Origin: Bacteroidota bacterium
GTDB lineage: Bacteria; Bacteroidota; Bacteroidia; Flavobacteriales; Flavobacteriaceae
NCBI GenBank assembly: GCA_022562895.1
Contig: JADFOK010000011.1
Location: 10,851 to 74,850, forward strand
Length of the DNA: 64,000 nt
Direction of reading: 5' to 3'
Part shown: positions 49,801 to 53,205 of the stretch, in pieces
Position numbering within the stretch: position 1 is the stretch's first letter
Layout: each line of letters opens with the position of its first letter
Program-made: the position numbers and the translations under genes
Notes under the pieces: generated by a model
Databases searched by the model: none
What the model was told of the DNA's origin: nothing
The model's input: the letters and a program-made list of their open reading frames with translations, nothing else

Positions 49801-50682
49801 TTAAGTATTATAACCAAATCGTCTTAATTGGGTTTTATTGCTGCGCCAGTTTTTATTCACTTTTACCACTAACTCTATATATATCTGTTTGCCAAAAAAG
49901 GATTCTAAATCTCTGCGAGCTTCAATACCAACTTTTTTAATAGCTTCGCCCTTATGACCAATAATAATTCCTTTTTGGCTATCGCGTTCTACCATAATAA
50001 TGCTTCGAATACGAATTATTTTTTCTTCTTCGAAAAATTCCTCAGTATCAATTTCTACCGAATAGGGTATTTCTTTTTTATAATGAATCAGGATCTTTTC
50101 ACGAACTATTTCATTTACAAAAAATCGTTCAGGCTTATCGGTAAGTTGGTCTTTCGAATAAAATGGTGGGGATTCCGGCAGGATTTGCAGAATACGTTGA
50201 AAAACCTCCGGAACCCCAAAGTTTTCCAATGCTGAAATGGCAAATATCTCGGCATTAGGAACCTGTTCTTGCCATAAATCAAGAGCTTCACTAAGCATTT
50301 CCTCATTGCCTTTGTCAATTTTATTAATAAGTAACAAAACCGGAATTTTAGCTGAAGTTATCTTATTAAAAAAAGCTTCGTCCTTTAATTGTTTTTCACC
50401 TAATTCTACTAAATAAAGTAGCACATCAGCGTCTTCAAAAGCCGACCTTACAAAACTCATCATGCTTTTTTGTAACTCGTAGGCCGGTTTAATAATCCCC
50501 GGAGTATCACTAAGGATCATCTGAAAATCATCGCCGTTTACAATTCCTAAAATACGGTGACGTGTAGTTTGCGCTTTGGAGGTAATAATAGACAATCGTT
50601 CTCCCACAAAAGCATTCATGAGTGTACTTTTACCGACGTTTGGGTTGCCAATTATATTTACAAATCCAGCTTTGTGGGTCAT
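49801..50682 (-). CDS. era: GTPase Era
   Basis: GNPNVGKST, QTTR, DTPG, NKID, KH domain IIIGHKG. Confidence 0.98.
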   Translation of the reverse strand: MTHKAGFVNIIGNPNVGKSTLMNAFVGERLSIITSKAQTTRHRILGIVNGDDFQMILSDTPGIIKPAYELQKSMMSFVRSAFEDADVLLYLVELGEKQLKDEAFFNKITSAKIPVLLLINKIDKGNEEMLSEALDLWQEQVPNAEIFAISALENFGVPEVFQRILQILPESPPFYSKDQLTDKPERFFVNEIVREKILIHYKKEIPYSVEIDTEEFFEEEKIIRIRSIIMVERDSQKGIIIGHKGEAIKKVGIEARRDLESFFGKQIYIELVVKVNKNWRSNKTQLRRFGYNT

Positions 50683-50711
50683 ATTTAAAATTTGAGTAAA
50701 GATAGAATAAA

Positions 50712-50740
50712 AAAAGCCTCTAGATTTCTCAAGAGGCCTT
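50712..50740 (-). terminator. Intrinsic terminator next to distal tRNA-fragment repeat
   Basis: GCCTCT-N10-AGAGGC stem followed by TTTTTTTT on minus strand. Confidence 0.65.
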
Positions 50741-50743
50741 CGA

Positions 50744-50802
50744 TGTAGCGGAAATTGGATTAACTCCCTTGTAATATTTAGTCGTTGATCCGGAATAGGG
50801 AA
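50744..50802. repeat. 59-bp repeat copy A (degenerate tRNA-fMet 3' fragment + hairpin arm)
   Basis: tgtagcggaaattggattaactcccttgtaatatttagtcgttgatccggaatagggaa; 51/59 identical to copy B. Confidence 0.9.
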
Positions 50803-50857
50803 GCTAAATGAGTTTGTGCGTGATTTTTTGAAAGTGCTTGAATTTCAGTTCAATACA

Positions 50858-51298
50858 TTAATTTAGCTCGTTCTCAATTAAACTAATCAACTCCCTTATT
50901 TCTTCCAGAAGCAAGTTCCTATCCCTTAAAGCTGCATCTGTCATATCAAACTTTGTAGCAATAATATTTAAAAAAGTTTGATTTTGAAGTAACATCTCAT
51001 AATTAATTTCATTGCCAGGTATAACATTATATTTACTTATTGCAGCACTAAATAGTCGTACAAAATTGACACCATTAATTATTTCATTATCAATACTTGT
51101 TGTCTGAAGGGTCACCCTATCTCTTAATGTTTCATCCAATTTATTGATGCGGTTTTCCAAAGCAGTAAATTGTATCCGAATATTTTCATTAGAAATTAAT
51201 CCAGTTTTGCCTGAGTTTTTTAAATCCGTATAAGAATTTATTACTGGAGCTTCCTCGAATGCATTTCTTTTAATGCGTATAGTGCTTTGTGGTGGTAT
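50858..51298 (-). pseudogene. 5'-truncated gene remnant (resembles DUF6090-type proteins)
   Basis: 146-codon open frame with no ATG near its start; contains SYTDLKNSGKTGLISNENIR; family call from memory only. Confidence 0.5.
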
Positions 51299-51413
51299 TT
51301 AAATTTTCTGTTTTTTTGATGTTTTTCTGAAGAAAATAGATTTTTTCCTTGAGAATTTATTAAGGAAATTCAGCCGTTATTGATTTTATACGCTGTTGGA
51401 TGCTGCATTTATT

Positions 51414-52034
51414 TTAGAATGAAGCCCTTTTTCTTATTTCTTTATTTTGTTTCTCCTCTTCAATAGTCTCTTTTGATATTTCCTCTATATCTTTTTTCTC
51501 AATTTGTTTTTTTATTGTGAAAGGGTAAAAAATATTAATAAAACTTGATATCGCTAAAAATATAATAATGGTCTGCACCCAATTATTCTCTGCAATATAA
51601 TTCAATAATTCATTTTTTTTCAGATTGTTAAAAGTGTAATATATTATAGATAAGATTAATGCTATTGAAAAGACATAAATAGTATTTCTTCTTTCAGAAA
51701 TTTTCTTTCTTATTCTAAAAGAAAAATAATTTATTTTATGTTCGTTTGATAAGTATTTTATTAAATGAATTTTAAATTTAGATATCTTAACTTCTTTGTA
51801 AAGACCTTCTGTATGAATTTTTTCAATTTGCGATGTGTATTTATTTACTTTTCGAGGATATAAAATCTGAATATAGTTATCATTTTCTTTTTTTAAATAT
51901 TGAATTCCACAACTATACCATTCGTTTTCTATACTAACCTCAGTTACATTCCAAAACATTCCAAATGGATTCCAAAATCTATTGTTTTCATTTTTTGTAA
52001 TTCTAAGATTTTCTTTTCCAACTTTAATATTCAT
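51414..52034 (-). CDS. Hypothetical membrane protein (island cargo)
   Basis: 206 aa, two C-terminal hydrophobic segments, visibly more AT-rich than flanking core genes. Confidence 0.7.
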   Translation of the reverse strand: MNIKVGKENLRITKNENNRFWNPFGMFWNVTEVSIENEWYSCGIQYLKKENDNYIQILYPRKVNKYTSQIEKIHTEGLYKEVKISKFKIHLIKYLSNEHKINYFSFRIRKKISERRNTIYVFSIALILSIIYYTFNNLKKNELLNYIAENNWVQTIIIFLAISSFINIFYPFTIKKQIEKKDIEEISKETIEEEKQNKEIRKRASF

Positions 52035-52047
52035 TTTTTGAGTACTT

Positions 52048-52101
52048 GCAGGTAACGGTTTGGCTAAACTGTGTTTTAATGCAGTTTAGGCTATGTTGTG
52101 C
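52048..52101 (-). repeat. attC-like imperfect palindrome
   Basis: GCACAAC-ATAGC-CTAAACTG-N10-CAGTTTAG-CCAAACC-GTTACCTGC just before the 52034 ATG. Confidence 0.55.
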
Positions 52102-52625
52102 TTAGTTATTTATATTGTTCGATAATGTTTTGAATTAATTGCTCTTTAGCAGTTTTAAATAAGCCCCTAAAATAGTAACTTAAAATTTAATCATTAATGA
52201 TTTATACCGCATAATTTTAATATCCCCCCCTCTAAAAGTATTAAACGCAATATCAGTAATTAGCCCCCCAATCAATTCACCGTAAAAATGTATCTCTTAT
52301 ATAGCAACTTGAGAACCTCAACTTTGTATATGTATATAATATATTTAGTGGATGAGCAATTTTACCTCTTATTCAAGTTTTTGATGGTATTATAATTAAA
52401 TGCGATTTTTCTGCAAAATTTTAAAAATCGATGTTTTCAATAAGAGAAGACCCCCCATCCCAATATTAAGAATTGAGTTCGATTTTTTCAAAGTACCCCC
52501 CTCATTTCTTATTTCAATTTTAACCTCATATAGTGGCTAAATGAGAGGTGTTAATATAAAATCGGGAATATTTCGGGAAGAAAAAAAGCCAACTATTTGA
52601 AAAACAAACAATTAACCTTCTAGGT

Positions 52626-52684
52626 TGTAGCGGGAGCCGGATTAACTCCCTCGTTATATTCGGTCGTTGATCCGGAATAGGGAA
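52626..52684. repeat. 59-bp repeat copy B (exact tRNA-fMet 3' fragment + hairpin arm)
   Basis: ttgtagcgggagccgga at 52625-52641 is 17/17 identical to 52889-52905. Confidence 0.9.
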
Positions 52685-52742
52685 ACTTTACAAGGAAAAC
52701 CATAAATGCATTGCATTTATTTATTTTTTATTTTACTGAATA

Positions 52743-52859
52743 ATAAATGTAAACATCACCATTCTGAAAAATAAATGTAAACATCACCATTCTGAAAAAT
52801 AAATGTAAACATCACCATTCTGAAAAATAAATGTAAACATCACCATTCTGAAAAATAAA
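52743..52859. repeat. Tandem array, four perfect copies of a 28-bp unit
   Basis: ATAAATGTAAACATCACCATTCTGAAAA starting at 52743, 52771, 52799, 52827. Confidence 0.97.
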
Positions 52860-52886
52860 AAACCAGATACTTTCGTATCTGGTTTT
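52859..52886 (-). terminator. tRNA intrinsic terminator
   Basis: AAAACCAGATAC-loop4-GTATCTGGTTTT perfect stem followed by a T tract on minus strand. Confidence 0.85.
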
Positions 52887-52891
52887 CCTTG

Positions 52892-52964
<73 letters not shown>

Positions 52965-53022: not shown

Positions 53023-53205
53023 TTATTGTTCTATACTTTGTGCTTCAAAACCTGAGAGTTGCCCTTTTTCAAAATAAACTGATATTTCAATGGGATTACA
53101 GCATACTTCACAGTCCTCGATATATTTATTAAAATCTATAGAATCATCGAGTAACATCGAAATATTTTCCCAACAATAAGGGCATAAAAAGAAATGTTCG
53201 AACAT
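53023..53205 (-). CDS. CPXCG-motif cysteine-rich small protein
   Basis: CPYCWE...EDCEVCCNP. Confidence 0.88.
   Translation of the reverse strand: MFEHFFLCPYCWENISMLLDDSIDFNKYIEDCEVCCNPIEISVYFEKGQLSGFEAQSIEQ

Follow-up and report, generated by a model that had tools for sequence, protein, structure and literature searches.

Among the mobile elements known to accumulate at a single chromosomal target, the cis-mobilizable elements (CIMEs) of the accretion-mobilization type, familiar from the ICESt1/3 elements of Streptococcus, are integrase-less, flanked by att sites, stacked beside a site-specific target and served by a recombinase in trans. They derive from identifiable integrative and conjugative elements, and their helper resides in the same or related strains. 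Here we describe a locus of similar outline in a 64,000-nt stretch of DNA (the window) from a member of the Flavobacteriaceae, Bacteroidota bacterium (GCA_022562895.1, contig JADFOK010000011.1, 10,851-74,850 of the forward strand). Behind the gene for the initiator tRNA (tRNA-fMet) lie two direct repeats, a proximal one (P) and a distal one (D), in each of which an arm, presumably element-side, is joined to what would be a displaced tRNA-fMet 3' end. With moderate confidence, we regard these repeats as attR-type junctions of stacked integrative modules that would depend on a recombinase in trans and that are integrase-less here. The modules resemble CIMEs in their stacking and in the proposed trans dependence; unlike for CIMEs, no helper was found.

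NBU1 and NBU2 of Bacteroides share the phylum and the type of target, a tRNA 3' end, with the modules described here, a likeness by description only. Their tyrosine integrases target a core of 13-14 bp at the very 3' end of the tRNA gene, inverted repeats lie near the attP core, and the elements measure 10-12 kb and carry integrase and mobilization genes. At ssrA of Dehalococcoides, tandem islands without an integrase, marked by a conserved motif next to the repeat, have already been described (PMC3146451): these kilobase-sized islands with rdhA cargo stand in tandem, each repeat has a conserved 15-bp motif beside it, 16 of them encode a serine recombinase and 15 lack an integration module. 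The locus studied here is similar in its tandem order behind one tRNA-like gene, in the direct repeats of the 3' end, in the element-side motif upstream and in insertion at the T loop; the Dehalococcoides islands without an integration module were read as cis-mobilizable (PMC3146451), and the modules here are likewise integrase-less. Where Dehalococcoides has a 15-bp non-hairpin motif, the locus here has a covarying hairpin formed with the displaced T-stem strand; no cognate recombinase was detected, and a cargo-less unit of ~170 bp is the form met most often. The islands of tycheposons in Prochlorococcus grow by successive integrations (bioRxiv 10.1101/2020.12.28.424599). They too belong to marine bacteria, are anchored at tRNA genes and push older elements outward, and they show scattered partial tRNAs, degenerate remnants and heterogeneous populations. 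What defines tycheposons, however, is a tyrosine recombinase and replication genes of their own, and neither a hairpin arm nor a cargo-less mini-unit is described for them.

The single tRNA of the window is tRNA-Met(CAT), and two further CAT tRNAs lie elsewhere in the genome; its 5' CGCGGG start and its GGG/CCC anticodon stem mark it as the initiator. Downstream on the tRNA strand follow a terminator (T1), a 28-bp tandem repeat, a second hairpin, P, 1.8 kb with two small open reading frames (ORFs), D, a second terminator (T2) and era. Copies of the tRNA end with its arm were scored with a covariance model, R1, based on a 16-copy alignment (A2) of such copies. The features are as follows.

52891-52964, minus strand: tRNA-fMet (initiator, anticodon CAT), the anchor of the locus; ARAGORN, Rfam tRNA match of 63.8 bits, comparison with congeners.
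52857-52888, minus strand: terminator T1, directly behind the tRNA and first element of the mini-unit (module B); terminator scan, 14-pair stem with T-run.
52736-52859, no strand assigned: 28-bp tandem repeat within module B, 4.4 copies; Tandem Repeats Finder.
52702-52729, plus strand: hairpin ATAAATGC-ATT-GCATTTAT followed by a T-run; sequence and alignment of units.
52689-52702, no strand assigned: stretch complementary to the tRNA 3' end and its trailer; TACAAGGAAAACCA here and TGGTTTTCCTTGTA at 52880-52893 form an inverted repeat of 14 nt with 100% identity.
52626-52687, no strand assigned: proximal repeat P; tRNA 3'-end copy at 52626-52641 (17/17 when counted from 52625), arm at 52642-52684; R1 score 65.3 bits.
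50803-52625, minus strand: module A, the 1.8 kb between the two repeats, with ORFs of 206 aa (51414-52034) and 100 aa (50858-51160).
50744-50805, no strand assigned: distal repeat D; decayed tRNA 3' end (four changes) and arm; R1 score 54.6 bits.
50709-50739, minus strand: terminator T2 (GCCTCT...AGAGGC and T-run), behind D; sequence.
49801-50682, minus strand: era, conserved chromosomal flank; ORF, 83-87% identity in 27 of 28 congeners.

The direct repeat spans 62 nt (50744-50805 and 52626-52687) with 85% identity. Over the 59 nt reported in a preliminary description of this DNA, a tRNA 3' fragment cut at the T loop and joined to a 43-bp arm, the same 51 positions are identical, and identity to the tRNA begins at the last T-loop base. 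The eight differences within these 59 nt are shared equally between the tRNA part and the arm, which is 90% identical between the copies; all four arm differences fall in the hairpin loop, and a block of 22 bp (50781-50802 and 52663-52684) is identical in both. The 17-mer TTGTAGCGGGAGCCGGA occurs with 100% identity at the tRNA 3' end (52889-52905) and at 52625-52641, and with 71% at 50743-50759, which bears out the perfect proximal copy and the four distal substitutions described earlier, as does the succession of D, terminator and era. The 17-nt end is thus present three times in direct order; these repeats, oriented like the tRNA, bound each module, and the arm consistently lies on the tRNA-body side of the displaced end. 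The T stem of the present tRNA (GCTGG/CCGGC) includes a U.G pair that the nearest congener, with GCTGG/CCAGC, lacks; the tRNA end of D differs at three positions from the congener-type end and at four from the present one. The U.G T stem and the closeness of D to the congener-type end give a weak hint that the tRNA 3' end may have been replaced.

Genome-wide blastn of the arm in the 2.3-Mb assembly of this organism (G000; completeness 90.6%) returned two places only, both at this locus (E 1e-18 and 4e-9), followed by chance matches of 12-15 nt. The arm is therefore neither a chance match nor a dispersed repeat, and in other genomes it is tied to tRNA ends. It is highly improbable that the copies are a repetitive extragenic palindrome or miniature inverted-repeat transposable element lying near the tRNA by chance, or, alternatively, decayed tandem duplicates of tRNA-fMet. 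The latter would fit the T-stem-like CTGG...CCAG frame retained by the arm and the AAGGTC of some copies, as in the tRNA variable region; however, when the first 58 nt of the tRNA were aligned locally with the unit body, the result was no better than with shuffles in 15 of 15 units. An origin as CRISPR repeats or as a retron was also rejected, as the repeat periods do not fit and the associated genes are absent.

The arm family surfaced only through the junction pattern and then the covariance model, plain sequence matching being insufficient: exact 22-mers and 20-mers of the arm had no match in genome, viral and metagenome contig collections, and blastn with a 71-nt query found none in 60 relatives. 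Across 401 Flavobacteriaceae genomes, the junction pattern was found in 17 genomes of 16 genera (the reversed control gave four matches), and R1 at E ≤ 0.01 matched 46 genomes, about 25-30 of them with full-length matches and nearly all of these in different genera. The arm is homologous across at least 13 genera. In the congener G001, the junction (GGA joined to TTAACTC) lies 169 bp behind the tRNA and is followed by a T2-like terminator, and in seven further genera fragment and arm stand at a fixed distance behind a genuine tRNA-fMet. Most genomes with a full-length match hold one or two copies, nearly all adjoining a tRNA gene. Related arms with matching tRNA ends also occur at tRNA-Pro, with two tandem units in G278.

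Most R1 matches lie 154-182 nt behind tRNA-fMet and belong to a cargo-less unit of common build: tRNA, terminator hairpin, AT-rich spacer with a central hairpin, second hairpin, trailer complement, arm, host tRNA 3' end and terminator. Hairpins equivalent to T1 hold the same position in units from other genera. The 28-bp tandem repeat of the window amplifies the central hairpin region of the unit (GATGTTTACAT), whose homologue is single in other genera. The second hairpin (52702-52729) has kept its position in other genera while its stems have changed; judged from its sequence, it resembles a terminator that would serve the strand antisense to the tRNA and converge with T1. A trailer complement of 11-16 nt, located 51-65 nt before the second tRNA end, was found in 13 of 15 units scored from other genera; its sequence differs from genus to genus, and no more than 3 of 200 shuffles attained such a complement (in most units none did). 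The second tRNA end agrees with the host's own T-stem variant in most genomes, and the repeat of G198 and G226 takes in the terminator as well. T2 is probably the original terminator of tRNA-fMet: G001 and G412 have a hairpin of its type behind the repeat, and the repeat-less G017 retains half of one upstream of era.

The conserved helix of the arm pairs CCGGATTAAC (52637-52646) with GTTGATCCGG (52666-52675) in P, and 50755-50764 with 50784-50793 in D. Its consensus in A2 is CTGGATTAAC with GTTGGACCAG, that is, the displaced T-stem strand plus TTAAC with GTTGRWCC, so that the first five nucleotides of the stem belong to the tRNA fragment; a short variable helix stands above. This helix takes the place of the TCCCT/AGGGA outer stem proposed earlier, which is not the predicted centroid and by inspection pairs in only a subset of the A2 copies. 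A tRNA-like cloverleaf or acceptor minihelix was likewise rejected for either strand, because by inspection of A2 the acceptor strand has no partner. Both-sided changes occur in seven pairs of the helix, compared with 3.1 ± 1.0 in shuffled alignments (0 of 500 reached this value), and slid controls collapse. On the preferred reading, the hairpin would be a site for the recombinase or an accessory protein. The covariation also bears on a possible though doubtful alternative, in which the repeats are fossil scars of one or two ancient integrations with no active system, later changes arose by homologous or slipped recombination between repeats of 17-62 bp and by exchange of flank alleles, and the arm is conserved merely as it was copied. 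Passive scars should decay, yet compensatory changes keep the hairpin paired, the trailer complement covaries across genera, the second tRNA end fits the T-stem variant of most hosts, and arms group across genus boundaries. An island without an integrase, in a genome without an arm-linked one, is what such scars would leave, and the tandem arm arrays of other genomes, with periods of 98-242 nt, resemble products of slippage.

The same unit could also be a structured RNA gene linked to tRNA genes, the repeats then being gene copies and not recombination sites, which we consider unlikely. In one version, a small RNA of the + strand would begin with a 5' end antisense to the tRNA-fMet 3' end and continue through the hairpin and a trailer-copying linker to its own terminator; in another, a mimic of the tRNA 3' half would be co-transcribed on the tRNA strand. 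The two conserved T.G wobbles make the helix better on the + strand of the window, and in most genera a hairpin with a T-run follows the arm on that strand. The unit has constant size and several covarying hairpins, leaves unpaired 10 nt complementary to the tRNA acceptor strand, and is re-tuned to tRNA-Pro and tRNA-Arg. On the other hand, no consistent Bacteroidetes-type promoter motif was seen by eye upstream of the unit on either strand, and the upstream flank varies among genomes. Folding energies of single sequences are ordinary (z -1.1 to +1.0), and Rfam 15 has no family for the arm unit: apart from one sub-threshold match, only tRNA genes were hit. Metatranscriptomes gave coverage of the tRNA only, or patchy undirected contigs, the latter from the sole RNA-labelled run with coverage, a whole-genome-amplified library. 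A search for an RNA run of G001 found none. An RNA gene would also leave unexplained the variable cargo between tRNA and unit and the integrase remnants that abut the unit.

The sub-threshold match is a weak hit to BjrC68, a small RNA of Bradyrhizobiaceae (window 50705-50777, minus strand; 24.6 bits against a gathering score of 39). It spans the distal tRNA fragment and terminator and probably reflects the shape of a tRNA end with a terminator only.

Folded single-strand recombination sites, namely the attC sites of integrons and attP(+) of CTX phage, have the form of imperfect hairpins, with AAC...GTT at the core and an apex that varies, and they delimit promoter-less cassettes. By analogy, the arm and the displaced T-stem strand might form a folded site, a hairpin mimicking the tRNA end, that would let a helper or host recombinase stack integrase-less cassettes, including a self-propagating 170-bp 'empty' one, behind tRNA-fMet, tRNA-Pro and tRNA-Arg. 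This is an improbable elaboration. The GTTGGAC of the arm fits the attC consensus GTTRRRY; GATTAAC, by contrast, is one base off RYYYAAC, with 10 + 2-6 bp the stem is much shorter, IntI and attI are absent, and the site is fused to a tRNA end. When the locus was compared with integron attC, no integrase was found nearby, the hairpin measured ~40-55 nt, compared with the 57-141 nt and the R''/L''/L'/R' boxes of attC, and only the AAC...GTT resembled an R box.

The site behind tRNA-fMet is an insertion hotspot. In the set of 28 congeners, the gap between era and tRNA-fMet measures 111 bp (G014), 193 bp (G017), 0.9-1.2 kb, 2.2 kb (own genome), 2.4, 5.9, 12.7 (G027) and 15.8 kb (G001), and G014 and G017 represent the empty state with tRNA, terminator and era only. 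The interval is thus far from unchanged among relatives. Strong R1 matches within the genus are limited to G000 and G001 (2 of the 28-congener set), with three weak ones besides, and several genera represented by two species have a match in just one of them. The arms of G000 are 67% identical to those of another genus but 48% to that of the congeneric G001, whose arm in turn reaches 69% with other genera; together with the patchy distribution, this fits horizontal spread. Cargo between the tRNA and the arm core is absent in most genomes (154-182 nt) and amounts to 0.7 kb in G268, 2.7 kb in G331, 3.6 kb in G226 and 4.7 kb in G370.

Taken as a mechanism, the attR-type reading would run as follows. 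We infer an origin by site-specific integration, with an element family that would target the last ~17 nt of tRNA-fMet in Flavobacteriaceae while its relatives target tRNA-Pro and tRNA-Arg. Each element would carry the hairpin arm on one side and, opposite it, a replacement tRNA 3' end with a terminator, so that integration would restore the tRNA and displace the old 3' end outward. Two stacked modules would be present here: a cargo-less mini-unit (T1, central hairpin, trailer complement, arm; 52642-52890) and a 1.8-kb cargo module (50760-52625 including the arm). Movement would require a recombinase in trans, most likely the tyrosine integrase of a co-resident element, and the present-day reshuffling of modules may run mainly via the repeats. 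The preliminary description had proposed repeated insertion of small modules, and the hotspot (111 bp-15.8 kb) and the delimitation of strain-variable modules by the repeats agree with this; its proximal module, though, holds no cargo cassette and is instead the conserved ~170-bp unit, enlarged by the 28-bp repeat. Likewise, tRNA-end repeats do bound the modules of the cassette array it envisaged, but with two modules the word 'array' is generous.

As stated earlier for this locus, there is no integrase in the interval: no integrase ORF lies in the island, and tblastn with 32 integrases found no remnant. The proposed search for a co-occurring tyrosine recombinase did yield four in the own genome (two Xer-like, one beside tRNA-Arg(CCT) and one on contig C25), yet none of the four belongs to the arm-linked integrase family in this 90.6%-complete assembly. 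In Zhouia amylolytica (G370), two complete 175-nt units flank 4.7 kb that open with a frameshifted tyrosine integrase right behind the tRNA-end copy, and in G222 a truncated integrase likewise starts directly after such a copy, the position in which intact relatives sit directly behind tRNA genes. These remnants abutting the arm core suggest that the mini-unit was inserted between the tRNA and an older element. The Zhouia pseudogene has close relatives in Zhouia alone. The arm-adjoining integrase family occurs in 71 of 401 genomes, at tRNA-fMet, tRNA-Leu, tRNA-Lys and a tRNA-Gly/tRNA-Leu pair. In G007 (C74), a 44-nt tRNA fragment from the anticodon loop adjoins an integrase, so other kinds of element use the same tRNA.

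This second class of element at tRNA-fMet (G007:C74, L153 of G031 and L157 of G081) uses it through the anticodon loop and has a tyrosine integrase of that family, 440-490 aa long, directly behind the tRNA and a 44-nt direct repeat. The integrase beside tRNA-Arg(CCT) in the own genome (C64:72747-74799) has 403 aa and lies ~1 kb behind that tRNA, with 10 kb of contig left beyond it; the assembly of the own genome has no further copy of the tRNA-Arg(CCT) end.

Strain variation was followed in assembled contigs from 20 marine-sediment metagenome runs that hold the locus. The depth of the island equals that of its flanks in X1, and in X4 module A has about one third of the flank depth. A contig from X20 (419 nt) and short ones from X4 read from era through T2, a D-type tRNA end and a D-type arm straight into module B; the one from X20 then crosses T1 and reaches the 17-mer and the beginning of a P-type arm. 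Since single 31-mers span both X20 junctions, the junctions are real. A strain of the X20 type thus has the mini-unit between P-type and D-type copies, where the window has module A, and pieces of a window-like module A are also present at lower depth. The strain breakpoints coincide with module boundaries, one of them within the 22-bp block common to both arms. The number of 28-bp repeats varies as well: contigs of X1, X4 and X13 lack 84 bp (three copies), and X20 has about one copy. Homologous exchange via the identical blocks of 17 and 22 bp could explain these rearrangements without an active recombinase, which would suit the idea of inert ancient scars. The junction of the D arm with module B keeps every D-type variable position and switches within the longest identical block, the 22 bp; two unequal exchanges, in the 17-nt and 22-nt blocks, convert the arrangement of the window into that of X20, and the 28-bp repeat within module B varies by slippage.

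Several observations weigh against the attR-type reading. The crossover in X20 lies in the 22-bp identical block, as homologous recombination predicts. The X20-type arrangement also means that a simple polarity, with the oldest module farthest from the tRNA as first proposed, does not describe the whole population, although the cargo-less unit between tRNA and integrase remnant in two other genera agrees with it. No circle junction or empty-site form of this species was seen in the assembled metagenome contigs, and no intact element carrying both arm and integrase was found. The arm-adjoining integrase family, the only one met beside the arm, does not co-occur with arms, a homologue being present in ~2 of the ~20 best-scoring arm genomes as against 71 of 401 overall; its relatives checked at tRNA-fMet leave a 44-nt anticodon-loop repeat and no arm, and, with this anticodon-loop site, the family is probably not the source of the enzyme for this arm. 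Finally, the cargo-less unit has near-constant size and internal conservation in at least 15 genera, a trailer complement and a terminator-like hairpin on the + strand, none of which an att site needs. These extra conserved features hint at another function, possibly that of an RNA.

The ORFs of module A have no family match in Pfam, PHROGs, PADLOC or NCBIfam, and no defence or phage family was recognized among them. The 206-aa ORF (51414-52034, minus strand) has a weak 2TM match. Its homologues, for example in Tenacibaculum aquimarinum, are 46-80% identical and equal in length; they are lone genes in unrelated chromosomal neighbourhoods, their DNA homology stops ~25 nt beyond the gene on each side, and one adjoins the gene of a 1279-aa STAND-type NTPase. 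A homologue search for the 100-aa ORF found none. The remaining 590 bp (52035-52625) are ORF-free and AT-rich, with four C6-8 runs (near 52226, 52265, 52452 and 52496), little or no contig coverage in some metagenome runs, and neither a family match nor an integrase remnant. At its end nearest the tRNA, module A retains part of a terminator tail similar to that of T2 (GAAGAAAAAAAGCC, 52577-52590). On the other side of the locus, a gene for a cysteine-rich CPXCG protein of 60 aa (window 53023-53205, minus strand; Pfam PF14255, E 1.9e-16) stands between the tRNA and an ABC-F gene.

Arm-like hairpins in tandem were met at several tRNA genes. Behind tRNA-Pro(TGG), L102 (G278; 1333-1742) has 2.3 copies with a 179-nt period, each with a 17-nt tRNA-Pro end, and short arrays also occur behind tRNA-Pro(GGG). 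L109 (G310; 1471-1813) has 3.5 copies with a 98-nt period behind tRNA-Arg(CCT), and L100 (G447; 1370-1808) has two alternating arm types with a 242-nt period behind tRNA-fMet. In L080 (G268; 1421-2190), three successive tRNA-fMet 3' fragments follow one tRNA, two of them with different arms (a TTAAC type and a TTCATTTC type) and the third longer and extending to the anticodon arm. As a multi-module array, this locus is clearer than the one in the window. Low-scoring, hairpin-only R1 matches stand in tandem with a spacing of ~110-270 nt at G324:C1:54424-54831, G209:C72:10025-10329, G061:C10:203457-203771 and G317:C1:790954-791261.

New in this locus are a hairpin formed in part by the displaced T-stem strand, a complement of the tRNA trailer, a widespread cargo-less unit that carries no recombinase gene and the lack of a detectable cognate recombinase, and these features leave room for an RNA function or for a folded-DNA recombination site. 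Stacking islands at tRNA genes are known; what is added is a recognisable site grammar for the Flavobacteriaceae, which are an abundant marine group with poorly described mobile elements. Should the hairpin be a recombination site, it would define a new class of trans-mobilised mini-elements and provide a simple marker of island boundaries. Should the unit be an RNA, it would be a regulator linked to tRNA-fMet. And if the site works in folded form, the Flavobacteriaceae would possess a tRNA-anchored cassette system with a site grammar of its own.

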